Notes under the pieces: model-generated
Seen by the model: the letters and a program-made list of their open reading frames with translations, nothing else
The model's database searches: none
What the model was told of the DNA's origin: nothing
In this document: positions 18,528-57,388 of the stretch, piece by piece
How positions within the stretch are numbered: the first letter of the stretch is position 1
Layout: every line of letters starts with the position of its first letter
Translations under genes and position numbers: made by a program
Sequence record: NC_104726.1
DNA: 64,000 nucleotides
Reading direction: 5' to 3' (one strand)
Source of the DNA: a phage

Positions 18528-18758
18528 ATGAGTCATAACTCCAAGTGGAAGGATCTTGGTTTTGCAAGTCGGGCAGAATATGTTGGTTGGCTTTGGTTCA
18601 ACGGCCTGACAAACGATATTAAAATGTATGATGATGTTTATTATGACGAGTATACAGGCAAAATTATAAATATCTCTGTAGAAGAGGATACCTTTATCCA
18701 GCAAGATACTGATACCTGCCTTGATAAATACGTTAATGAAGTGGAGGAAGCAAATTGA
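18528..18758 (+). CDS. hypothetical protein (76 aa)
   Basis: ATG after AAGGTGGTGAAG SD; track ORF extended upstream into previous gene. Confidence 0.45.
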   Translation: MSHNSKWKDLGFASRAEYVGWLWFNGLTNDIKMYDDVYYDEYTGKIINISVEEDTFIQQDTDTCLDKYVNEVEEAN

Positions 18759-21070
18759 TCACCAAGGTAATTAAAAGCAACGGATGTGAAGTGGCATTCG
18801 ATCCAGAACGTTTAAATAAGGCAGCTATTTTCGGTGACGACGGTAACGGCAATTGGTCACATATTGCACTGGATGCATACAAACGACTGTATGATGGATG
18901 CACAACCAAAGAAGTTAACCAAGCTATTATAGACTCCTGTGTTAGCCGTAAAGACGAAGCACATTCCCGTATGGCTGGTCGTGTTCTTATTGGTCAGATT
19001 TATAAAGAGGCTTTTGGAGGGTTTACAAAGATCCCTTCCTTACCATCATTTTACAACGACATGGTTGAGAAAGGGTATTGGGAGGATATGGGTTATAGCT
19101 TTACCGAGTTAAACACTTTAGGCACTGTTATTGATCACAGTAAAGATCTCGGTTATGGCTATGCAGTCCTTAAACAGTTTCGCGACAAATACGGGATCAA
19201 GGATACTCTTAAAGACACCTTGTTTGAATCTCCTCAGATGATGTTTATGGGGATAGCAATGGCTGTCATGAAGAATATGCCGAAAGAACGTCGTATCAAC
19301 GATGTTGTAAAATTATACACTTATCTGTCCGACTTAAAGATCAATGCCCCGACACCGTACTTAAACGGTCTGCGCACAGGTAAGACAGGGTATGCATCTT
19401 GTTGTGTAATAAAAGCTGACGATACAGCAAAATCTATTGGTGTGGCACGTGAAGTTGCGTACACAATGACGGTTAACCAAGCAGGTATCGGCTACTACTT
19501 ATCCTCAAGATCTGCAGGCGATGGTGTTCGTGGTAACACTATTAAACATATGGGTAAGATTCCATATTATCGAGGTATTGATGCTGGGGTTAAGGAGAAC
19601 AGACAACAATCACGTGGTGGTTCTGCAACAGTATCATTCCTTGCACTGGACCCGCAGATTGATGAGCTAATCCGTTTGAGAAACCCTATGACTGTTGCTT
19701 CAAAAAGAATCAACACCATGGACTACTCCATCGGTATTAATAGGTCGTTTATCAACCGTGTGGCTAAGAATTTGGATTGGATGCTTGTTTCTTATAAGCA
19801 CGCGCCTCAACTGCATGAGGGTATCTTCACCATGTCTATGGAGGAGTTTGATGCAGAGGTTGATCGTATCGCTAAAGATGACAGTATTCCTAAAACATGG
19901 ATCCGAGCTAGAGATCTTGCTGTTGAGCTGATCACGCAGCGTACCGAGGTGGGAAGACTGTACGTATACTGGACAGATGAGATGAATAGACATACACCTT
20001 TTAAAGATGTGATCTATTCAAGTAACCTGTGTGCAGAAATAGCTCTCCCGACAAAAGGCTATTCAGATATGCGTAATATCTTCAAGCACGATGTTGATGA
20101 TGGCGAAGTTGCATTGTGCTTCCTGTCATCTCTTGTAGCTGGGAGGGTTACCCCAGAGGAGTATGAGGATGTTGCATACTACACGGTGCTTATGATTGAC
20201 AATGTTATGGAAATCATGACATATCCGTATGAAAATATGGAGAGCACTGTTAAAAAACGCAGATCCATCGGGGTTGGCCTTACCAATGTTGCACATTTTA
20301 TTGCCAGCCACAAGGTTACTTACGGATCTCCTGAAAGTAAACAGCTTGTTCACGATCTTGCAGAACTTCACAGCTACAGCTTGCATAAGGCAAGTTTACG
20401 GTTGGCAAAAGAGCGTGGTGTCTGCGAGTGGATGCATAAGACAAAATATCCAGAAGGTTGGTTACCAATCGACACCTATAACAAAGAGGTCGATAGCGTG
20501 GTGAAAGATCCTTCTCTTAAACAGGATTGGGAAGGGTTACGTAAAGAGATCATTGAAAATGGTGGGCTACGTAATAGCGTTCTTGAAGCATATATGCCTA
20601 ATGAAAGCTCTTCGCTGGCAACAAACACCACTAACGGGGTTTATCCTGTCCGTGAGCACATTATCTTTAAAAAGTCGCCACAAGGGCAGGTGCTGTTTAT
20701 CGTTCCTGACTATGATGAGTTGAAAGAGTATTACACTTCGGCTTGGGATGTTGATACTAACGACATGATCGATATGTATGCTGTGATTCAAAAATTCACA
20801 GGTCAGGCAATCAGCGCGGATTTGTACATAGACTACACCAAGTTGAAAGATGGTAAAATTTCAATGAAGGAGCAGCTAGGGTACCTTATCCGTGCCACTA
20901 AATTCGGAATGAAGACATGGTATTATTTAAACTCTAGGGTTGGTGCTGGCGACTCCTTGGCAGAGGAACTTCATGCCAAGAAACAGGCTGAAGATGAAAC
21001 CAGAAAGAACTATCCTTTGAATGCAGATAGTTCAGTTGAAGATCAGTATTGCGAAAGTTGTGCACTATAA
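18755..21070 (+). CDS. nrdA: ribonucleoside-diphosphate reductase large subunit
   Basis: N-terminal ATP-cone (VIKSNGCEVAFDPERL), class I active-site NLCAEIALPT; 771 aa. Confidence 0.9.
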   Translation: MITKVIKSNGCEVAFDPERLNKAAIFGDDGNGNWSHIALDAYKRLYDGCTTKEVNQAIIDSCVSRKDEAHSRMAGRVLIGQIYKEAFGGFTKIPSLPSFYNDMVEKGYWEDMGYSFTELNTLGTVIDHSKDLGYGYAVLKQFRDKYGIKDTLKDTLFESPQMMFMGIAMAVMKNMPKERRINDVVKLYTYLSDLKINAPTPYLNGLRTGKTGYASCCVIKADDTAKSIGVAREVAYTMTVNQAGIGYYLSSRSAGDGVRGNTIKHMGKIPYYRGIDAGVKENRQQSRGGSATVSFLALDPQIDELIRLRNPMTVASKRINTMDYSIGINRSFINRVAKNLDWMLVSYKHAPQLHEGIFTMSMEEFDAEVDRIAKDDSIPKTWIRARDLAVELITQRTEVGRLYVYWTDEMNRHTPFKDVIYSSNLCAEIALPTKGYSDMRNIFKHDVDDGEVALCFLSSLVAGRVTPEEYEDVAYYTVLMIDNVMEIMTYPYENMESTVKKRRSIGVGLTNVAHFIASHKVTYGSPESKQLVHDLAELHSYSLHKASLRLAKERGVCEWMHKTKYPEGWLPIDTYNKEVDSVVKDPSLKQDWEGLRKEIIENGGLRNSVLEAYMPNESSSLATNTTNGVYPVREHIIFKKSPQGQVLFIVPDYDELKEYYTSAWDVDTNDMIDMYAVIQKFTGQAISADLYIDYTKLKDGKISMKEQLGYLIRATKFGMKTWYYLNSRVGAGDSLAEELHAKKQAEDETRKNYPLNADSSVEDQYCESCAL

Positions 21071-21077
21071 TTTTAAA

Positions 21078-21097
21078 GGGGCTTCGGCCCCATTTTA
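21078..21097 (+). terminator. hairpin (attenuator/terminator-like) between nrdA and nrdB
   Basis: ggggc-ttcg-gcccc followed by attttag. Confidence 0.4.
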
Positions 21098-21109
21098 GAG
21101 GTTAGAATA

Positions 21110-22198
21110 ATGGCTGTATTTAATGCTGAGAACACCGCTCATAAAACTGGTGACTATCCGCTGTTTCTAGGACAGCAAATGGGTATGTACGACTCTATCA
21201 ACAAAAAATATCCACAACTGTTTGAACTATACAAAAAACAAAAAGAGCAAGATTGGGCAGAGGATGAAGTGGATTTGTCGCAATCTATTTCAGATTTTGT
21301 AACATGCTCAAAGTCAACTTATGACGTGATGGTGCAGACCTTGATGTGGCAATGGGAGGCTGATAGCGTTGCGGCAAGATCGATCATCTGCCTCTTTTCA
21401 CCATTCATCACTAATAGTGAGCTTTTCACTCTATTGATGAAACAGTCAGAGATTGAAGTTCTTCACGCACTAACTTACTCAGAGATTGTTAGACAATGCC
21501 TCCCCAATGCCCGTGAGATTATAGAAGAGATTCAGGAAAACCAAAACGTTCTGAGCAGATCCGGCGTTATTGTCAAATACATGCAAGAGCTTGAGGTTAT
21601 TGGTGCAAAATACCGCCTGGATCCTTCTAGTGTTGAAGAAGATATTGTGCGGAAATGCATTCTTAGAGCGCTTTTTGCACTTTTAGCCCTGGAAAGTATT
21701 GAGTTTATTGCAAGTTTTGCATGCACTTTCGCAGTAGCTGAACAGGGTATTTTTGTTCAGGTGGCGCAGCTTGTTCAAAAAATCATGCTTGACGAAATGC
21801 TACATTCGAAAGGTGATTTTGCCATCATTGATATCTTGCTTAACGATCCCGCATGGGAGAAAAGCTTCCTGGAGATAAAAGGGGAGTTAAAAGAGATTCT
21901 TGATGAAGTACGAACCAAAGAGTACGGTTGGAGTGACTATATTTTCAGCGAAGGAAGAGCGATTATAGGTCTTAACTCACCGTTGCTTAAAGAATGGGTT
22001 GACTATAACTGCTCACCGATTTATGATTACTACGACATCGACAAAGACTTTGTGCCGCCAACAAAGGACCCGCTACCGTTTATGCAGGTGTGGATGAAAC
22101 CTTCATTGCAACAGACGGCGAACCAAGAAATGTCGAACACTGACTACCGCGTCAACACAACTGTTAACGACGCTGAAGAAGAAATTTGGGAGTTTTAA
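21110..22198 (+). CDS. nrdB: ribonucleoside-diphosphate reductase small subunit
   Basis: Position directly after nrdA, 362 aa, ferritin-like helical composition with E/H-rich segments. Confidence 0.8.
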   Translation: MAVFNAENTAHKTGDYPLFLGQQMGMYDSINKKYPQLFELYKKQKEQDWAEDEVDLSQSISDFVTCSKSTYDVMVQTLMWQWEADSVAARSIICLFSPFITNSELFTLLMKQSEIEVLHALTYSEIVRQCLPNAREIIEEIQENQNVLSRSGVIVKYMQELEVIGAKYRLDPSSVEEDIVRKCILRALFALLALESIEFIASFACTFAVAEQGIFVQVAQLVQKIMLDEMLHSKGDFAIIDILLNDPAWEKSFLEIKGELKEILDEVRTKEYGWSDYIFSEGRAIIGLNSPLLKEWVDYNCSPIYDYYDIDKDFVPPTKDPLPFMQVWMKPSLQQTANQEMSNTDYRVNTTVNDAEEEIWEF

Positions 22199-22201
22199 TA
22201 T

Positions 22202-22480
22202 ATGAGCTGCGAAAAATCTTTTTTCATCATCATTTACGGTAAGGATAACTGCCCACATTGTGTCAGAGCAAAAGAATTTGCAATCAGCAAAGGTCTGCCT
22301 TTTGTATATAAGACACTTGGCGAGGGCTACACAAAAGAAGAGCTTATTGAGAAGTGTAGTCCAATCGTCCCCCGAACGTTGCCGCAGATCTTCTTAGAAA
22401 GCGATCTTGACAGTATCCATATAGGCGGTGCCGACGATTTCATCTCTTTTGTTAAGAATGGTTTTGGAGAGAAAAAGTGA
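22202..22480 (+). CDS. glutaredoxin/thioredoxin-like redoxin
   Basis: CPHC active-site motif near N-terminus, 92 aa, between nrdB and nrdD. Confidence 0.7.
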   Translation: MSCEKSFFIIIYGKDNCPHCVRAKEFAISKGLPFVYKTLGEGYTKEELIEKCSPIVPRTLPQIFLESDLDSIHIGGADDFISFVKNGFGEKK

Positions 22481-23337
22481 AAGTTGTAAAACGGGACGGT
22501 AGAGAAGAGTTCTATAACGGAATTAAGGTGATCAAGGCGGCAGAGTCCGCCTTACTTGAGTCTGGACATACTGAAGAAGAAGCTTACCGGATCGCTTGTG
22601 CGGTTAATGAAGTTGTTGCTAACAATCTGCCAACCGACCAGTGCACGATCTCTGTAAAAAATATCCATATCCTTGTTGAAGATGCTCTTATGGATATGGG
22701 TTTAAAATGTGCAGCCAGAGAATACATCCAGTATAGACAGACAAGAGATAATAACAGAGAGGCAGGTGGAAAACTGCTTGCAGATATTAGTGGCTTCTTG
22801 GATCGAACTTGTGATGAATTTACAAAAGAAAACGCAAATAAGCCTACTAATCATGTACACACTCATCGCGACCTGCTTGCAGGTATTCTTAGCAAACACC
22901 TTGCATCAACACAGATCCTGCCAGACCGTGTCTCCGAAGAGCACAATAAAGGCTTCATCCATGTGCATGATCTTGACTACTTGATCAGTCCGTTAACAAA
23001 CTGTTGCTTGGTAAATTATCCAGATATGTTGGAAAACGGATTCAACATTGGTAACGCCCATGTCAGTAAGCCGAAGTCAATAGGGGTTGCAACAACAATC
23101 CTTAGCCAAATCTCTAGTGCGGTAGCTAGTGCTCAATATGGTGGTCAGACTATGAGCCATATTGATCATTATCTGGCACAGTATGCTGAAGCGACCTATG
23201 AGAAGAACCTTAAATTTTGCCAGGAACATTGGTTGCCAGATGCTGAAACTGTTGCAATGCAAATGACAGATAAAGACGTGTTTGACAGCATGCAGACGTT
23301 GCTTTATCAGATCAACACACTAACCTCGGTAAACGGT
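22477..23337 (+). CDS. nrdD: anaerobic ribonucleoside-triphosphate reductase, exon 1
   Basis: ATP-cone N-terminus; ORF ends in stop TAA at the first three intron bases; T4 NrdD-like sequence continues in exon 2. Confidence 0.85.
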
Positions 23338-23594
23338 TAACAAACTGGCCGTTTTAAAACTCTGCTAACCTTAGTATGAGGGGTCAGCTGATCGCTGGCT
23401 AACGGGGAACGCTAAGGCGAAAGCTATGCCAATCCCGTGACTAGCTTCACAAGGAGTGAGGCGGTTGTAACGACTAACCTTTTGGTGTAGGGATTATGGA
23501 AGATTCCGAAACGCAGGGGTCTGATTAAGAATCACACGGTGTGATTTCAGGCAAGAGATAGTCTGGCCTTGTGGAAACATAAGGGTGGGGACCG
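23338..23594 (+). other. group I self-splicing intron (no internal ORF) in nrdD
   Basis: Exon 1 ends in U; internal guide gccguu pairs with exon end aacggu (U-G at splice site); intron ends in G; P/Q/S-like core elements; splicing restores ...SVNG|QTPF... in frame. Confidence 0.8.
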
Positions 23595-24857
23595 CAAACC
23601 CCTTTTATCACATTAAGTTTAGGACTGGATACCTCGGTCTTTGGTAGAATGATTACCAAAAATTACTTGAAAGTCCACAAAATGGGTCTTGGTGAAGAAC
23701 GGATCACACCTGTGTTCCCTAAAGTGCTGTTCTTCCTAGAAGAGGGTGTCAACATGAACCCTGAGGATCCTAACTATGATTTGAAACGATTAGCTCTGGA
23801 ATGCTGTGCAGAACGTATCTACCCTGACTTCGTATCTGTACCACTAAATAGAAAAGTGACAGGCTCGACAGATGGCAAAGTAACGAGCATGGGTTGCCGG
23901 AGTTTTCTTAGCAAATACAGTGACTTGGAAACAGGCGAGGAGAAATATCTTGGCAGATTTAACTTAGGCGTTGTTAGCCTTAACCTACCAATGATTGCGG
24001 CAAAAGCTAAGACGGAAGGTGTTGATTTCTTTGCAGTTCTTGACGAATACTTGGATCTTGCATACGAGGCTCACCTTGTAAGGGTTAACCGTCTAAAAGG
24101 AACAAAGGCAGGGCAGAACCCCATCATGTGGTGTGAAGGAGCTCTTGCTCGCCTGGATCCTGAAGAGAGTATTGATAAACTCTTCTATGACGGGTACGCT
24201 TCCATCAGCATTGGGTATATTGGTGTGTATGAAACCTGTCAGATTTTGGGTAGAGAGGGTGACAAGGCTTTAGCTCTTGGAATCCTTCAGCACATGAGAG
24301 ATGCTTGTGAGCGATACAAGAAGGAAAGTAGACTAGCGTTTAGCTTGTACGGCACTCCTTCTGAGAGTCTATGCTATAAAGCTGCAACCTGTCTGGATCG
24401 TGAATATCCGGAAGTGTTGAAGCACGAGCATGAATATCTCACCAACAGTTTCCATCAGCCAGTATGGATCAATAGCTCTCCTTTTGATAAGTGGGAGTAT
24501 GAGGAAGGTTTTGCTATGATCTCCTCCGGTGGCAACATCGGATACGTAGAGACACCTAACCTGAAAAACAACCTTGATGCTTTAGAGGCTCTTGTTGACT
24601 TCGGGTATAAACACATTATGTATTTTGGTATTAACCAACCTGTGGATAAATGTCTCAAGTGTGGTTTCTCTGGTGAGTTCAGTGCAACAGCTAAAGGGTT
24701 CTGCTGCCCTGCGTGCGGATGCCACGATGAACAATATATCTCAGTGATCCGAAGAGTGTCTGGATACCTTTCCAGTCCTAACTCCCGTCCTTACAATAAA
24801 GGTAAGCAAGCGGAAGTTATCGAGCGAGTTAAGCACTACGGAAGTTGTGGTTGCTGA
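23595..24857 (+). CDS. nrdD: anaerobic ribonucleoside-triphosphate reductase, exon 2
   Basis: Glycyl-radical motif RRVSGYL near C-terminus; zinc site CLKCGF...CPACGC; frame continuous with exon 1 after intron removal. Confidence 0.85.
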   Translation, partial: QTPFITLSLGLDTSVFGRMITKNYLKVHKMGLGEERITPVFPKVLFFLEEGVNMNPEDPNYDLKRLALECCAERIYPDFVSVPLNRKVTGSTDGKVTSMGCRSFLSKYSDLETGEEKYLGRFNLGVVSLNLPMIAAKAKTEGVDFFAVLDEYLDLAYEAHLVRVNRLKGTKAGQNPIMWCEGALARLDPEESIDKLFYDGYASISIGYIGVYETCQILGREGDKALALGILQHMRDACERYKKESRLAFSLYGTPSESLCYKAATCLDREYPEVLKHEHEYLTNSFHQPVWINSSPFDKWEYEEGFAMISSGGNIGYVETPNLKNNLDALEALVDFGYKHIMYFGINQPVDKCLKCGFSGEFSATAKGFCCPACGCHDEQYISVIRRVSGYLSSPNSRPYNKGKQAEVIERVKHYGSCGC

Positions 24858-42772: not shown

Positions 42773-44235
42773 CACACAATTAGCTGCCCGGCTAAAGTGC
42801 TGGAAGCACCTATAACACATCTTTCAACTAAATTTCCTACCACCACAATCACTTACCTCCCACACATGACTGTTTGCTTGTTTAGTGAGCAGTCATGCCT
42901 TGACATTCTTGCCTATCCTGATAAAATTAAGTTCTTCTCTTTTCTTTTACCGAGTAATTCGGGTTTTCTGTTCTCTTCGGTTTGAAGGGGTATGGAGATA
43001 CACCTGAGTGAACAGGGTGAACAACCGAACATTTGGCTATGGCATTAGCATGGCGAAGCGGACGGGTGACGAAAGAGGGGCCGGAGGACACCAGTCACTG
43101 CCATATGATATATGGGTGATAACCTGAAGAGTCTGAATAAGTGTTTAAGTACCAGTCAGAGGAAAAGGTGAATGGTAGCCGAAGGGGGAGGGGGGTTTCT
43201 TGTATCTTTAATTTGTATATTATGTATACACTCGTAAACCAATCTCATCTGAATCTGTTTACCACACAAAGTAGATAGGGACAAATATCACCTATTAAAC
43301 TTGAATTATTTATAGAAAATACCACAACACCACTTAAGTCTTTGATTTTACACACAAATCCTACAGATATTCAACCTCTATATTTAACATATTCATAACA
43401 TATTCCATACTCTACCTGTCTGATCAATTTACCCAACCACATCCTCCATATTTTCCCTGTCTGTACTACCCCTGCCCCGCCGGGAGTCCCGTCATATCTG
43501 GCTTTCCAGCAAATATCACACCCACAAATATCATTACCTGAAGAGGGTTTCATCCCATAATACCTGCCTTACCTGAAGAGCGCTTCATATACCCCGTAAA
43601 TTTTTTAATTGACCCCCTCCCCGCCGCCGGAGGGGTCGGCTTTTCCCACACAGGCCTGAAGAGTCAGCCAGAAATATCTGAACAGGTCCAGTTATACCAC
43701 GATTTTGACCTGACCGACAGGAGTGCTGCCAGGCGGACGAAATGGGAATCATTCTCATTCTTATAACAATTCTCAAATATCGAGGCAGTGAGGCAAATTA
43801 ATAGGTGAGGCCGTTCACACAATGGCACAACATTTGCAACCTATCTTGTGGGAGTGAATGAGAATACCTATCATTGTGAGAATAGTTATCATTACGGGCA
43901 ATTTAACATAATACCCATTATGCGCACCACTGGCGATCCATACAGGGATTGATAACATGAGTTACCGTTTACGCACATAACAATTATATTTCTTACTATT
44001 TGTGTGGGATATAGTTAGCAGCCAATAGATTAGATATTAACCTGCGGACTTCTGACCGTCCAGACGTCTAAACGCCCACACAACAAGGGTTATACATACA
44101 CAACTGAATGTAAACAGGGCCGCAAAAATGCTACCATACCAGTTTGTAAATTTTCATGCAGCACTTGACAAAGAGGAGAAAAACTTGTCTGACACCTTAT
44201 ACACTTTCGACACAATAACGACTGTTATTATTTCA

Positions 44236-44315
44236 TGTTTCACTGTTCACGTATAGATTGTTCCCGCATAGACTGTTTACGCCTGGATAGTTTACACCTT
44301 AACTGTTTACACAGA
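44236..44315. repeat. iteron-like direct repeats of (C)TGTTTAC-type motif
   Basis: ctgttcac, ttgttccc, ctgtttac, tagtttac, ctgtttac spaced about 11-14 bp apart. Confidence 0.45.
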
Positions 44316-44384
44316 TAGGATAAGCCATGACATTCGTTTGCATGAAAACAATTAGCAAGTTAACAATTAACAAGTTAATAATAT

Positions 44385-44580
44385 ATGACATAATATAAAA
44401 GCAGGGCAACTATTAGCAGATCTATAGTTGCCTTGCTTGTTATGTCATGATTAACTGAATACAAGGCAACTATGATCTGATTAATAGATTGCAGACAAAC
44501 TATCACGGGGGTGATGGTTACTGCTTTTATATTATGTCGCGACTCCGTCGCGCCATGCCATTCGTTTGCATAGTTGCCTT
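44385..44580. repeat. nested inverted/direct repeat structure (18-bp perfect inverted repeat flanking GGCAACTAT repeats)
   Basis: gacataatataaaagcag at about 44387 and its reverse complement at about 44521; ggcaactat four times in both orientations; ccattcgtttgcat direct repeat. Confidence 0.55.
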
Positions 44581-45185
44581 ATTGTTACGAATAAAACAAT
44601 TGCATTGTTAATGATTTCTTATCTTTCTCTTAGTCATCTAATGATTACAGTCAGTATAGTTATGTACAGTAAACATTAGACGACTAAAGATTTCTCTGTT
44701 TATTATAACTTACCATTACAATTTCGGACTGTTTACCAAGAATGTTGACACATAAGCTGATTTATGTTATGCAGTTTACACGAATAATTATTTTATGCAG
44801 GTATTGACTATTCCGTTATTCTATGGTTGGAATAAATACTTAGCAGACTATAGAATGGTGAGCGTACGTAAATTCTGAGATCTGGCGGCTATAGTTATAC
44901 TCGATTTTTCACGTAGAACACGCTTTTGTGGTTGTGTAAGTGTATGACTTATAAAGATTTTTAGTTGTTGACAAGACACTGAAGATATGCATCAGGTTAA
45001 ATTTTGTGCAATAGCTGCATTACGTGCACTTTTGGGAGAGAAAACGGGTAAAAATGGGCCTGCTACCACACAATGAAAGATTATGCAATAGTTATTTTCC
45101 ATGTATATTTGTACAGTATGTGGAATTGATGGCTAGTCAATTATTCCACTTGCCAGGTAGGGCCGTTTATGGTAGGAGAAGAGCA

Positions 45186-45215
45186 GACAAAAAGAAAGGG
45201 GCCTTTAAGCCCCTT
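45186..45215 (-). terminator. rho-independent terminator (minus strand)
   Basis: aaggggc-cttta-gcccctt hairpin; on minus strand followed by tctttttgtc; just downstream of the stop at 45234. Confidence 0.6.
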
Positions 45216-46121: not shown

Positions 46122-46394
46122 TTACTTATGGCGGCAGAATTCAAGCGTTTTTAATTGATAATCTTCCTCAGCCTGGAGTACGACCGCCTCGATCATTTCG
46201 TTGGCATTGTTAAAGCCATAACCTTTAGCGAAATCATCCGCGCCACCTTCGTGATCATGTTCTGCGTTCATCGCTTCCACAAAATGGAATTCAAGATTAT
46301 TGAGGTAAGGGCTTGATGTTCCGTCCTCTTTTTCGATGAGATCCCAAATAGCATTAAAACGTGATTCGACTTCTTGATTAATCCAGCTTGACAT
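46122..46394 (-). CDS. hypothetical acidic protein (90 aa)
   Basis: GGGAGGAAAA SD; leader hairpin upstream. Confidence 0.5.
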   Translation of the reverse strand: MSSWINQEVESRFNAIWDLIEKEDGTSSPYLNNLEFHFVEAMNAEHDHEGGADDFAKGYGFNNANEMIEAVVLQAEEDYQLKTLEFCRHK

Positions 46395-46604
46395 AATGTT
46401 TTCCTCCCTTCTGGTTGTTGTGTGGGCACTTTTGCCCCTTCAAGATAATGTTACCCCACCCCCTGGCAGATGTCAACGGTTTTTATAGTTCTTATATGAT
46501 AGGCAGGCCCGGTGATTGTCTCCCCCCGTCGCCAGGTGCCTGCCGTGTAATAAGTATAACAAAAAACAGGACCATTGCAAGCCCTGTTTTGTAGTTTATA
46601 AATA

Positions 46605-46804: not shown

Positions 46805-46939
46805 CTAAAACAATGAGTTAATATATAACACCAGATCGCTGACTACCAGGACAACATTAATCAGCACATACCTAACCATAAAGGGAAAGATCGCCAACAT
46901 TGCCGCCACGATCCCCATGGTAATAATTATCTTTCTCAT
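46805..46939 (-). CDS. small membrane peptide (about 44 aa)
   Basis: Read directly: ATG two bases after upstream stop; hydrophobic; not in track (under 60 aa). Confidence 0.35.
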   Translation of the reverse strand: MRKIIITMGIVAAMLAIFPFMVRYVLINVVLVVSDLVLYINSLF

Positions 46940-54688: not shown

Positions 54689-55087
54689 TTATTCGTGGGC
54701 ACATGTTACAATGTGCTTTTTATAGCCTAGGTGGTTAGCAAGTGCCGACAAAAACTCTTCTTCATAGATCCAGCCGTTGGCAGTGATCCCCATAGCATTT
54801 AATGCGCTCTCAAGTGCTGCGTTAGCTTTATCATAACCGTGACCGCTCGCCTTGCCGCCAGTATAACCGTACTTATTGTTCTTGTTGTCGTGCATCCAAA
54901 AAACGCAGTAGTTAGTGTTACCGCTGGCGGCGGCATAGTACCGGATCTCCGCTACTTCGTGCAAATTATTATCATCGTCCAGGCCAACCAGATTATAAGC
55001 CTTGTAAAATCCACGATCACGGCGGCAGTTCTTGACATCAGAAAAAGAGAAGTCGGCATTATCAAAATTAAAGGTAGTGGTTTTCAT
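54689..55087 (-). CDS. hypothetical protein (132 aa)
   Basis: AAGAGGATAAAATC SD; promoter upstream. Confidence 0.5.
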   Translation of the reverse strand: MKTTTFNFDNADFSFSDVKNCRRDRGFYKAYNLVGLDDDNNLHEVAEIRYYAAASGNTNYCVFWMHDNKNNKYGYTGGKASGHGYDKANAALESALNAMGITANGWIYEEEFLSALANHLGYKKHIVTCAHE

Positions 55088-55119
55088 GATTTTATCCTCT
55101 TAGTGTCTTTTGCGATTTC

Positions 55120-55148
55120 AGTATATTTTGTGTCAGACCATATGTCAA
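55120..55148 (-). promoter_or_regulatory. sigma70-type promoter on minus strand (TTGACA-17-TATACT)
   Basis: Reverse complement reads ttgacatatggtctgacacaaaatatact. Confidence 0.6.
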
Positions 55149-55150
55149 CA

Positions 55151-55348
55151 TTATTTTTTATTAAACCAGTGGTTGATCTGACCTTTTGTCAGGGCGCAAC
55201 GGTTAAGCTGTTGCAGGGTATAGCTATGACCGCGACGAAATTTATAAAGGCCTTGCCCGTTGTTGATGGTTACATCCACCCGGCAAATCACTTGATTGGT
55301 GACCACCTGGCGAGTGTTGCGACGTACTTTAATTCCGTAGGCGTTCAT
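55151..55348 (-). CDS. hypothetical protein (65 aa)
   Basis: GAGAGGATAAAAAATC SD. Confidence 0.45.
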   Translation of the reverse strand: MNAYGIKVRRNTRQVVTNQVICRVDVTINNGQGLYKFRRGHSYTLQQLNRCALTKGQINHWFNKK

Positions 55349-55426
55349 GATTTTTTATCCTCTCTGTTAATTGGTGTGGTGTTGTTCACCTTGCGAGGAT
55401 AAGAATAACAAGAACTGTCCGAGCTG

Positions 55427-55609
55427 TCAACCATTAGTTAAAATTATTTTTGGGTAGAATTCTCCAGCCGCCGCCCCTGCCAGGTTAACCATCATTTTTT
55501 CGTACTCTTCTTTATGTTCCAACGCTCCCGCCATAGCCTTTTCAACCAGGGCGATAGCCTCAGCGTCATTAATAGCTACATTTTCCAGGGGGATCATATT
55601 ACCTTCCAT
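55427..55609 (-). CDS. hypothetical protein (60 aa)
   Basis: GAGGAGGTACAAAA SD. Confidence 0.45.
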   Translation of the reverse strand: MEGNMIPLENVAINDAEAIALVEKAMAGALEHKEEYEKMMVNLAGAAAGEFYPKIILTNG

Positions 55610-55869
55610 TTTTGTACCTCCTCTTCAATTGTTACCTATCCTATAGCATAGGCCCACCAGGTTTGCAAGCCTTCATTATCTCCTACCTGGTCAGTTAGGC
55701 CCTGCCAGGCTGGCCCCGCCAGGTTGCAGCGGTCAGCGCATCAGGTTAGAATTTTTTTTTTGAAAAGTGTTGACAGCGGCCCCGCCAGGTGGCAAAATAT
55801 ACCTATCGAAAGGACGGCAGGCACCGGTGACGGGGGAGACAACCACCGGGGATGGGCGCTGCATGAAAT

Positions 55870-55889
55870 GAGAACGATTATCATTATCG
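55870..55889. promoter_or_regulatory. Fur-box-like palindrome (GAGAACGATTATCATTATCG)
   Basis: Hexamer-repeat structure close to the GATAATGATAATCATTATC iron-box consensus, downstream of a GC-rich hairpin. Confidence 0.4.
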
Positions 55890-56005
55890 TCTAAAAATTT
55901 ATGCAAAAACTTCTTGCTTTCTTTGTCCTGTGTGTTACTATAATAACAAGCCGGGGCAGTAGGGGCCGGGAGACAATCACCGGGCCTGCCCGTTATTCTG
56001 CAAAC

Positions 56006-56022
56006 GAGAATGATTATCATTC
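56006..56022. promoter_or_regulatory. Fur-box-like palindrome (GAGAATGATTATCATTC)
   Basis: Second copy in an imperfect about 90-bp direct repeat of the preceding element. Confidence 0.4.
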
Positions 56023-56135
56023 AAAATTCTAAATGAGAACTCCTCGCATTTAATAAATTTAATTAGCACGCTAATTACCCTCCGTAACAATTTCCTATAA
56101 AATAGTATCCACTAAAATATTCCCATATAGAAATT

Positions 56136-56320
56136 TTAAAAATCCATTTCTGAAAACGAAAAATCGATTTCGTCCCCAAAAATTTCAGGCCAAGAGCCGG
56201 AGCGATTTCCAGAAAATCCGATTCAGAAAACGAAAAACAGATCAAGTACTGAGAAATTTATCGAGAAAAATTTTCAGAAAATCCAAGCCCTGAAATGAAA
56301 AGTAGATCGAGTACCTGGAA
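56136..56320. repeat. three imperfect about 40-bp A-rich direct repeats (AGAAAATCC...TGAAAACGAAAAA...GAT...)
   Basis: Units starting near 56139, 56212 and 56277 with 65-73 bp periodicity. Confidence 0.55.
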
Positions 56321-56626
56321 AGCTGCACCGCAACTTCAAGATAGTGGTTAGATTGTTACCATAGAAGGTCAAGGGTAAGTGGAGGAAGTTCTAGTAGAGG
56401 GAGGTTAGCATGTGTGGGAAATCTATAATGGTGGCCTGGAATATGGTGCAAACGATAGGATGAGTTATTCAGCTTGTCGCGCCTACTCTGAAAAATCCAT
56501 TTTAGTTTTCGATCCATTTTCTGATTTTCTAAGAATTTTAAAATATCTGGCCCGGTGAAATATCAAAAGGAGGAAATCCATTTTAGAAATCCCCCTTATA
56601 CTTGATATGCCAGGAATTTTCAAGTA

Positions 56627-56956
56627 TCAGCTGTCTTTGTTTTTAGGTTTGTACATGCGCAGAGGTATGGTCTTTGTAACATTCCATTTCCTCAACCCTT
56701 CCCAGCTCCAGTTGTGGGCGTGATACCCGGTTATGCATGCACTGCTGGCGTGATCATAAGCATAAGAGAACGCTATGTGCACCAGGTGGGGCCAGTCCTT
56801 CCACGGCTGTGGACCGTAAGCCTTTCTCCAACACCGACACAAACTAATTGTCTCAAGAATAGGGAGAATAACAATTCCATATACCACCACCAGAATGGTC
56901 AGTGCAATGATTGTCAGGAACACATACCCTGCAGTTGAAATGATGATCTCTGTCAT
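56627..56956 (-). CDS. membrane protein (109 aa)
   Basis: Two N-terminal hydrophobic helices; AAAGGGGA SD. Confidence 0.5.
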   Translation of the reverse strand: MTEIIISTAGYVFLTIIALTILVVVYGIVILPILETISLCRCWRKAYGPQPWKDWPHLVHIAFSYAYDHASSACITGYHAHNWSWEGLRKWNVTKTIPLRMYKPKNKDS

Positions 56957-57156
56957 TTGTCGTCCCCTTTCTTACGAATATAGATGTGAGAGCCTGCCTG
57001 TATATAAATTTCTCGACCATCCTCTGCAAAGATATGAAATACACGATCACCTTCGTACTCGATACGAGATATCTTCATAATGGTCTTTCCACCTGGGATA
57101 CGGATCTCGTCCCCCACAGCGATGTTCCATGCAGATTTAAGCTTAAACATCTGCAC
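56953..57156 (-). CDS. hypothetical protein (67 aa)
   Basis: AAGGAGGGTGCAG SD; ATGA overlap with downstream gene. Confidence 0.5.
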   Translation of the reverse strand: MQMFKLKSAWNIAVGDEIRIPGGKTIMKISRIEYEGDRVFHIFAEDGREIYIQAGSHIYIRKKGDDK

Positions 57157-57388
57157 CCTCCTTTGGGAACTTGAACTCTGGCATAGCCATATACGCTACA
57201 ACAGGGTTGTGATCAAAGTAGAACTGACCGTTAATTATCCCGGTTTTGTCCACATAGTTACCAGATCCTGCAAGAACAACCTCGCAAGCTCCGAAATCCA
57301 CATTGCCATCCTCATCAGCCATGGCTACGATATACTTTCCAAGAGGCATGTTTTTAACGCCGTCTACAAATGTCCACTCTGTGTTCAT
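57143..57388 (-). CDS. hypothetical protein (81 aa)
   Basis: ORF in tightly packed operon. Confidence 0.45.
   Translation of the reverse strand: MNTEWTFVDGVKNMPLGKYIVAMADEDGNVDFGACEVVLAGSGNYVDKTGIINGQFYFDHNPVVAYMAMPEFKFPKEGADV

Follow-up and report, generated by a model that had tools for sequence, protein, structure and literature searches.

A conserved non-coding region of rV5-like phages, with host-type promoters, leader hairpins and Fur-type boxes, as a candidate transcription control hub

What role does about 1 kb of gene-free DNA play among the early genes of a strictly lytic phage? The question is raised by positions 55610-56626 of a 64,000-nucleotide stretch of phage DNA (sequence record NC_104726.1; hereafter the window), a region that sits within a long minus-strand block of small early genes. 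Comparison with public records assigned the window to Vequintavirus, as an rV5-like myovirus of Escherichia coli; over positions 55400-56800 it shares 99.4% identity with Escherichia phage PDX, and 108 phage records span at least 80% of this segment. An earlier note, made from the sequence alone, had described the region as a repeat-rich non-coding tract with palindromes resembling the binding site of the host regulator Fur, and had offered iron-responsive control, a regulator titration site, an origin with iterons or a small RNA locus as possible roles. The reading best supported by the sequence analysis reported here is that the region is a conserved non-coding transcription control hub across the rV5-like phages (Vequintavirinae) and Phapecoctavirus.

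Alignment of 11 Vequintavirus genomes, from which the figures on open reading frames (ORFs) and identity were drawn, revealed the following mean pairwise identities per segment:

55705-56055: promoters, hairpins and boxes; 92-97%
56129-56321: A-rich repeats; 92%
56322-56485: variable spacer between the iterons and the T-rich block; 69%, with indels of 1-2 nt
56486-56600: conserved T-rich block; 90%
The two flanking genes: 84-85%

The repeats are thus conserved, and the region also proved to contain no credible ORF, as the earlier note had held. Candidate ORFs were rejected on account of stops or frameshifts in some of the 11 genomes, with one exception, a 43-codon plus-strand ORF at 55901-56032. 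This is open in all 11 genomes, but nearly all changes in it are non-synonymous and radical (V to D, C to R, I to N, P to G), as in non-coding DNA, and it is missing from the divergent relative L050. GenBank annotators differ over small ORFs in the region and many annotate none. The plus-strand ORFs downstream of the region gave no Pfam match, and the one at 57080, considered as a homologue of DUF7170, the small plus-strand gene at the locus of other genera (see below), was found not to be homologous. No Rfam covariance model matched the window at the gathering threshold, and a relaxed Rfam search (E up to 10) of the region and its counterpart in phage PVP-SE1 gave chance-level matches only. 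These data indicate that the region is non-coding yet strongly constrained.

Transcription signals are the first conserved component. Three promoters were predicted in the region:

55744-55798, plus strand: promoter P1, with an upstream-promoter (UP)-like T-run, TTGACA at 55770-55775, a 17-nt spacer, and TGg plus CAAAAT at 55793-55798
55914-55941, plus strand: promoter P2, with TTGCTT at 55914-55919, a 16-nt spacer and the extended -10 TGtTACTAT at 55933-55941
55668-55640, minus strand: promoter of a 60-amino-acid gene, predicted from sequence, with TTGCAA at 55668-55663, a 17-nt spacer and TATAGG at 55645-55640

P1 has 10 of 12 matches plus the TG extension in a promoter scan, with a predicted start at about 55805; across the 11 genomes its -35 is invariant and its -10 reads CAAAAT, CACAAT or CATAAT. 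P2, with a predicted start at about 55948, was read by eye and is not flagged by the simple promoter scan of the window; its segment is 96% identical across genomes, and its equivalents in phages PVP-SE1 and KpS11 were flagged by the scan at an unchanged distance from the hairpin described next. Plus-strand promoters of differing sequence were called at equivalent places in PVP-SE1 (2286, 2446 and 2572) and KpS11 (1277, 1438 and 1595), and in five genera plus-strand sigma-70 promoters stand at a fixed distance upstream of the conserved hairpin. P1 and P2 are predicted to be strong sigma-70 (host-type) promoters oriented against both flanking gene blocks. A weak further candidate on the plus strand has TATAAA at 56096-56101.

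Each of the two promoters directly precedes a GC-rich stem-loop of about 45 nt with the loop GAGACAAyCACCG, and a third copy of the arrangement lies elsewhere in the window:

55816-55862, plus strand: hairpin 1, GGCAGGC...GCGCTGC, with the loop GAGACAACCACCG at 55836-55848
55950-55992, plus strand: hairpin 2, outer stem GGGCAG...CTGCCC and inner stem CCGG/CCGG, with the loop GAGACAATCACCG at 55970-55982
46590-46490, minus strand: third promoter and hairpin module, TTGCAA-17-TATACT overlapping a terminator, then the hairpin GGCAGGC...GCCTGCC with GAGACAATCACCG at 46522-46510

The hairpin core motif GGGAGACAAYCACCGGG is found at 55834 and 55968, and the core GAGACAANCACCG is matched three times in the window, where 0.15 matches are expected; the third match is on the minus strand at 46510-46522. 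The two modules of hairpin and palindrome, at 55806-55895 and 55942-56031, align at 61 of 98 columns, in agreement with the imperfect direct repeat of about 90 bp previously noted. Hairpin 1 folds at -20.1 kcal/mol (z-score -1.95) and is 97% identical in pairwise comparison across genomes; hairpin 2 folds at -21.6 kcal/mol (z-score -1.28), and the third copy has a z-score of -2.71. The third module is without a Fur box and is sense to its own promoter on the gene strand; next come a second promoter, with a GC-rich CCAGG motif in its spacer, and a gene that starts at 46394. A Fur-like site, CATGGTAATAATTATCTTT, was observed at 46916, near this module. Vequintavirus genomes carry two to four copies of the hairpin module each.

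The same fold was predicted in all of about 36 variants from rV5-like phages and Phapecoctavirus, with an outer stem, an inner CGG/CCG stem formed in part by the 3′ end of the conserved core, and GAGACAAnCA in the loop. In an alignment of 14 variant sequences the outer helix is 95% paired, versus 20-56% when the partner is slid, and its changes comprise one A-U to G-C exchange and several exchanges of G-C with G.U. These G.U pairs would become A.C mismatches on the minus strand and fit the plus strand only. A real RNA hairpin is the likely explanation of these patterns. Outside these groups, an apparently unrelated phage (L048; IMG/VR UViG_3300024307_000003, 93.7 kb) has at 520-790, at a convergent gene junction, a promoter with a hairpin in its spacer, the GAGACAATCACCG hairpin and two A-rich direct repeats of about 62 bp. 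This locus has no Fur-like boxes, so the hairpin is tied to A-rich repeats independently of the boxes.

Searches further afield returned little. In bacterial genomes, one per species, the hairpin core plus CTGCC gave 43 matches in unrelated GC-rich taxa, none of them Enterobacterales; we rejected these as true copies, the number fitting chance (about 17 expected before GC bias, an estimate). The plasmid search found no copy beyond a phage-like record, CP057073.1, and a metagenome scan gave mostly chance matches, with seven true relatives and no new architecture. Possible extra copies of the hairpin core were seen in contigs of 47-88 kb (L008/L011, L014, L020 and L038).

Downstream of both hairpins lie the palindromes for which Fur had been suggested, within a few bases of the places given in the earlier note. 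Together with three boxes elsewhere in the window that belong to this family, they are:

55867-55885: putative operator 1, AATGAGAACGATTATCATT, with a second overlapping register 6 bp downstream at 55873-55891
56003-56021: putative operator 2, AACGAGAATGATTATCATT, starting 35 nt after the hairpin core
56032-56050: degenerate box 3, AATGAGAACTCCTCGCATT, 29 bp after box 2
43741, 43857 and 43875: AATGGGAATCATTCTCATT, AATGAGAATACCTATCATT and TGTGAGAATAGTTATCATT, with 3, 3 and 4 mismatches to the Fur 19-mer

Likeness to Fur sites was scored as mismatch counts against the consensus and against genuine operators, instead of by a weight matrix. The boxes at 55867 and 56003 differ by two mismatches each from the Fur 7-1-7 19-mer AATGATAATnATTATCATT, to which the window has five matches at no more than three mismatches against 0.05 expected; the classical 19-mer GATAATGATAATCATTATC is matched at 17 of 19 positions at 55870-55888, against 0.03 expected per window. 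For comparison we used the E. coli K-12 ent-fep cluster and the ColV-type iucA promoter, whose fepA-fes, fepD-entS, fepB-entC and iucA sites we take to be footprinted Fur operators. These have 3-5 mismatches to the same 19-mer, farther than phage boxes 1 and 2, which lends the suggested Fur-box likeness strong support in silico. Box 3, with six mismatches, is probably weak or non-functional for Fur.

The boxes of the two modules come 33-35 nt after the hairpin loop. Across 58 distinct phage sites the consensus is AATGA[G/T]AAT[S]ATT[C/A]TCATT, the 7-1-7 Fur motif with AA/TT flanks except for G/T at positions +/-4, and phage 4MG carries a perfect TGATAATgATTATCA. The two half-sites vary independently among these sites, which argues for a dimeric DNA-binding protein and against an RNA or cruciform hairpin, a reading rejected here. 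Genuine Fur clusters are typified by overlapping registers offset by 6 bp (Chen et al. 2007, PMC2189734). Such an offset is found at 55867/55873, and the pair at 43857/43875 is offset by 18 bp; box 2 is without a 6-bp partner register. A tblastn search with E. coli Fur against 50,697 phage records found no homologue in the rV5-like and Phapecoctavirus groups, so that the binder, if of the Fur family, would be a host protein. A blastn search of the box region against E. coli genomes gave no useful match. Taken together, the sites suggest that Fur would quite probably bind these boxes in vitro; physiological control by Fur is less assured.

The boxes at 43741, 43857 and 43875 belong to a 2-kb convergent non-coding region (43000-45200), in which the 15-bp repeat ACTGTTyACRC also occurs about five times and AACAATTAACAAGTT about 2.4 times. 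In a Phapecoctavirus contig (L052), six boxes of this kind are clustered about 1.8 kb from the hairpin module.

Is this arrangement peculiar to Vequintavirus? In other genera, a sensitive blastn search matched one part of the region only, a core of some 90 nt (55966-56057, hairpin 2 and boxes), at 77-88% identity. It was found in Seunavirus (PVP-SE1, GAP31 and 4MG), Mydovirus, Certrevirus, Phapecoctavirus and Erwinia phage Hena1, as well as in Pectobacterium, Klebsiella and Proteus phages; in most of the records listed the core is unannotated, and in a few an ORF is annotated there, as a hypothetical protein or otherwise. The shared order is promoter, hairpin, one to five boxes, promoter and three iterons. 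In phages PVP-SE1, GAP31, 4MG, KpS11, Mydo, PBES02, CB7 and anhysbys it forms a plus-strand island amid minus-strand genes, which in these other genera reads:

Part 1: promoter and a small DUF7170 ORF, annotated in most records (Pfam identity from the PVP-SE1 copy)
Part 2: promoter and a GC-rich segment of about 100 nt
Part 3: two TGTAAAGA repeats
Part 4: P2 equivalent and hairpin
Part 5: one to five boxes, the first exactly 35 nt after the hairpin core, at a pitch of exactly 29 bp
Part 6: the next plus-strand promoter, its -35 lying 17-18 bp past the last box
Part 7: three iterons at 67 and 75 bp spacing, each ending in GATCGAGwAC
Part 8: TTTGAGATA and AAATATCA repeats, where the window has its T-rich block

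In Vequintavirus the DUF7170 ORF and the segment of about 100 nt are absent, and a second module of promoter, hairpin and box (that of P1) is found instead. The GC-rich segment, AGAAGAGGAAACGCCACCCCACGGCGAAAAGGCGGGGCTAAC...GGTGGATCGCCGGTAG, is highly conserved and follows a promoter in Seuna-, Mydo- and Phapecoctavirus (contigs L004 2300-2420, L061 1300-1410 and L003 2375-2470). It has no Rfam match and could be a structured RNA, with pseudoknot-like CGCC/GGCG and CCCC/GGGG pairing, or a minus-strand terminator.

Further repeats lie ahead of P1 and beyond the boxes:

55698-55709 and 55712-55723: adjacent pair of GC-rich repeats, GGCCCYGCCAGG, with a CCWGG site in each
56060-56077: perfect 8-2-8 palindrome TAATTAGCACGCTAATTA, kept in all 11 Vequintavirus genomes and in L050
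56129-56173, 56203-56249 and 56268-56314, plus strand: three A-rich iterons, AGAAAATCC ... GAAAAcGAAAA ... GATCGAGTAC, with cores starting at 56164, 56240 and 56305
56486-56600: the T-rich block, in which the iteron sub-motifs AAAAATCCATTTT and GATTTTCTAAGAATTTT recur as partial copies, both direct and inverted, along with AAATATC repeats; inverted repeats I1, I4 and I16
56598-56627: 8-bp hairpin ATACTTGA...TCAAGTAT (inverted repeat I18), abutting the stop codon of a 109-amino-acid gene

The three A-rich direct repeats were previously recognised as such; they start at 56131, 56205 and 56270, with spacings of 74 and 65 bp and 65-73% mutual identity, and are 43% A on the plus strand. The iteron tract is 65-69% A+T, and its units of 65-76 bp are far above the 17-22 bp of classical iterons. 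Three-unit iterons with the GATCGAGwAC core occur in four genera, and within the Seunavirus units A-tracts lie about 22 bp apart. The palindrome at 56060-56077 overlaps the -35 region of the weak promoter candidate mentioned above. The hairpin at 56598-56627 is not a canonical terminator, since no T-run adjoins it on either strand.

Of the GC-rich repeats, GGCCCCGCCAGGT is present at 55712-55724 and again at 55778-55790, the latter within the P1 spacer, so that its duplication is confirmed; looser copies lie at 55473, 55651 and 55698. One copy, GGCCCACCAGG, lies in the spacer of the minus-strand promoter at 55668-55640. The pattern GGCCCNNCCAGG has nine matches in the window at no more than one mismatch, against 1.5 expected, and 55705-55724 is invariant across the 11 genomes. 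Four features had been overlooked before: the promoters facing against the genes, the third module copy at 46.5 kb, the conservation over two subfamilies, and the palindrome at 56060-56077.

A second repeat-rich non-coding tract was observed at a strand switch at 1000-1200. Its large palindrome contains GATCTAGTAT / GTACTAGATC, a sequence that differs from the iteron core GATCGAGTAC by one mismatch. At 1066-1105 there is an AT-rich stretch with a perfect GATCTTTTATTTT in it, and at 1110-1195 the 21-bp palindromic repeat GTGTCCGTATCACGGACAGTA stands in four tandem copies. As a whole, 1000-1200 resembles a classical origin or operator array more closely than does 55610-56626.

How might such a hub work? 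P1 and P2 would yield non-coding plus-strand RNAs with the hairpins as their 5′ ends. The hairpin itself may be a generic leader, since at 46.5 kb a third copy stands at the head of an ordinary mRNA. With iron in ample supply, Fe2+-Fur dimers would sit on the boxes, about +57 to +105 along the transcripts, and limit transcription into the iterons, either as a roadblock or, in the other genera, by occluding the next plus-strand promoter; iron limitation would lift the block. The transcribed path would then cross the palindrome TAATTAGCACGCTAATTA and the three phased A-tract iterons with their invariant GATCGAGTAC core, an array that may be the platform for a putative phage DNA-binding protein. 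The output of the switch might be replication initiation, or an effect on the early genes upstream through antisense or convergent interference. That host Fe-Fur gates plus-strand transcription into the iteron array in this way is a tentative proposal, which we hold to be plausible and somewhat short of probable. The wider idea, that the strictly virulent rV5-like and phAPEC8-like phages use host Fur as a checkpoint, tying a core step of development (the start of replication or the early-gene switch) to the iron needed by their own ribonucleotide reductases, is more doubtful. Ribonucleotide reductases that require iron, of class Ia (NrdA, NrdB) and of the anaerobic kind (NrdD), are encoded at 18755-24857 of the window; this dependence offers a possible rationale for iron sensing.

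Several observations weigh against the hub and its control by Fur. On the side of transcription, no plus-strand terminator was called in 55000-57200 and no plus-strand gene was found downstream of the region; likewise, none of the former was called downstream of the hairpin at the PVP-SE1 and KpS11 loci. The RNA signal of the hairpin is modest: z-scores range from +0.6 to -3.7 across variants, the covariation in the outer helix is not significant in a shuffle control (83/500), the outer helix is not obviously kept in a metagenomic variant (L128), and RNAalifold found no consensus when 25 hairpin variants were put into a plain MAFFT alignment, as the 5′ arms of the hairpin slip between genera. 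The small RNA locus suggested earlier accordingly holds up in part: promoter position is conserved in five genera, but covariation is weak and no terminator defines a discrete small RNA. As for the boxes, the predicted P1 and P2 starts place them at about +57 to +105, not over the -35/-10 as is usual for Fur operators; their arrays have a pitch of 29 bp, not the Fur-typical 6 bp; and the half-site TGAGAAT is preferred over TGATAAT by about 2:1 among the 58 sites, a ratio that partly reflects search-pattern bias, so that a different binding protein is possible. A literature search found no experiment or transcriptome on the locus.

Such a different protein could be a phage-encoded dimeric repressor, with the boxes as its operators and the likeness to Fur convergent or a mimicry. 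G replaces the Fur-consensus T at +/-4 in about two thirds of the 58 sites, the fixed 29-bp pitch and the fixed 35 nt from the hairpin core resemble a dedicated phage system, and other palindromes are present in the region. Yet all other positions are those of the Fur 7-1-7 consensus, G and T change freely between half-sites and between phages, up to the TGATAATgATTATCA of 4MG, and GAGAA half-sites are carried by the genuine Fur operators iucA and fepB; no gene linked to the locus is a candidate for the repressor. We therefore consider such a repressor unlikely. An origin of replication is slightly less unlikely. Here the iterons and their inverted copies would bind a phage initiator, the A/T tract would unwind, transcription from P1 and P2 would activate or prime initiation, and Fur would be an accessory or gating factor from the host. 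This would account for an iteron array whose invariant core is kept across genera, for its 65-69% A+T, strong A/T strand asymmetry and the Seunavirus A-tracts about 22 bp apart, for promoters that read into the array, and for the density of distinct protein-site-like motifs in 1 kb of gene-free DNA. The authors of the rV5 genome failed to locate an origin, and their paper reports a non-coding box without describing the present elements (PMC3606486). Of the earlier suggestion of an origin, however, the conserved iteron array is the part that stood. GC skew is negative on both sides, where minus-strand genes flank the region, and drifts from about -0.06 to about -0.14 beyond 57 kb, with no inflection in GC or AT skew; there is no conserved DnaA box within one mismatch and no integration host factor (IHF) consensus, no similarity to plasmid replicons, and no adjacent initiator gene, the neighbours being of no known function. 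The tract at 1066-1195, with AT-rich DNA and four 21-bp palindromic repeats, is the more canonical candidate, and the hairpin module at 46.5 kb has no iterons. Likeness of the iterons to the oriC 13-mer (GATCTnTTnTTTT) was discarded as meaningless, the window having 60 equally good matches.

The hairpins could also serve as a transcription insulator or terminator between early operons, stopping minus-strand read-through, with the opposing promoters adding collision. The region does lie between two blocks of minus-strand genes, with a new minus-strand promoter immediately downstream (55668-55640); hairpin 2 is followed on the minus strand by TTGTTATTAT, and other genera have a terminator-like minus-strand hairpin in the same island. 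This is improbable nonetheless: the T-rich run begins 4 nt past the stem and the terminator scan makes no call, the G.U pairs of the outer helix would be lost on that strand, the third hairpin copy is sense to its own promoter, and the invariant loop, boxes and iterons are left unexplained. Nothing was found in support of the regulator titration site named in the earlier note. As a Fur decoy, the boxes, about six in 64 kb and multiplied by genome copy number during infection, would titrate host Fur off replicating phage DNA and de-repress host iron uptake; a decoy would not need fixed placement relative to promoters and hairpins, the number of boxes is small and variable (1-5) between genera, and there is no evidence of benefit, which makes it very improbable. 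A packaging (pac) site, with repeated sites for the small terminase and bent DNA, has the least to commend it. The phased A-tracts and the GATC cores of the repeated motifs are reminiscent of the pac sites of phages P1 and SPP1, and some public assemblies break inside the locus; but the duplicated hairpin modules explain these breaks equally well, record start points are inconsistent across genomes, and the locus lies in the early region far from any terminase gene. The reading as a transcription control hub is the one we retain.

The region is flanked by two genes of the minus-strand block, and the plus-strand block at 2.7-43 kb comprises nucleotide-metabolism genes, including those for NrdA, NrdB and NrdD. 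The flanks are:

55427-55609, minus strand: gene of 60 amino acids, the downstream flank (ATG at 55609)
56627-56956, minus strand: gene of 109 amino acids, the other flank, its stop codon beside the region

Both proteins fall in PHROG families of unknown function and have no Pfam domain. A tRNA/tmRNA search found none, and plasmid replicons showed no similarity to the locus. Sixteen to seventeen public records (MG0656xx) labelled 'Campylobacter phage', with host C. jejuni, are 96-99% identical to the E. coli phage locus, and CP057073.1, a 137.5-kb E. coli 'plasmid' record, matches it at 92% as the sole match in the plasmid search; these are probably mislabelled or contaminant Vequintavirus genomes.

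Each ingredient of the locus is of a known kind. With E. coli Fur operators the phage boxes share the 19-bp dyad, the 7-1-7 core TGAkAATnATTmTCA, the AA/TT flanks and the second register at 6 bp; the iucA operator string AATGAGAATCATTAT is identical in the phage box consensus, and fepB contains the phage-box string TTCTCATT. The phage boxes differ in lying at +57 to +105 downstream, in 29-bp arrays, with G preferred at +/-4, in a strictly lytic phage and with no iron-related gene downstream. In phage T4, oriF and oriG consist of a promoter and a downstream unwinding element, and the primary origin of T7 of promoters 1.1A/1.1B and an AT-rich tract. The promoters described here similarly read into an A/T-rich, strand-asymmetric, non-coding early tract, and the transcript would be purine-rich; the complex iterons of 65-76 bp, the leader hairpin, the host-factor boxes and the missing skew signal set the locus apart. 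The boxB hairpins of lambda nut and the put elements of HK022 are promoter-proximal leader RNA elements of lambdoid phages. Like them, the present hairpin is a short conserved stem-loop, with a conserved loop, right after several early promoters, multicopy and sense to the promoter, but neither boxA/boxB nor put resembles it in sequence, it has no Rfam match, and we know of no N-like gene.

Lytic cyanophages carry sites for host regulators, with PhoB boxes upstream of pstS and NtcA sites in promoters. There too, virulent phages have consensus-grade sites for a host nutrient regulator that they do not encode; those sites lie in promoters of identifiable metabolic genes, whereas here they lie in a non-coding hub and the nutrient would be iron. 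Host Fur boxes are also known on phage DNA. The stx1 promoter on a temperate phage carries one. Others lie upstream of sitABCD on lambdoid, temperate coliphages (PMC6969025). Boxes of that sort control cargo expressed by the prophage, in contrast to the present ones, which are a conserved core element of a virulent phage. The literature searched held nothing on the present locus and nothing relevant on Fur boxes in lytic phages; as far as this search goes, the combination of elements, their placement and their conservation over two subfamilies are undescribed.

The rV5-, PVP-SE1- and phAPEC8-like phages have a broad host range and are used in biocontrol and therapy. The hairpin with the GAGACAA loop, absent from Rfam, is a candidate new phage RNA motif, and the locus offers experimental handles in its two promoters, defined boxes and defined iterons. 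If host Fur gates the hub, phage yield would depend on iron, which is scarce in infected tissue and serum; and if true, this would be a clear example of a global host regulator wired into the core programme of a lytic enterobacterial phage.

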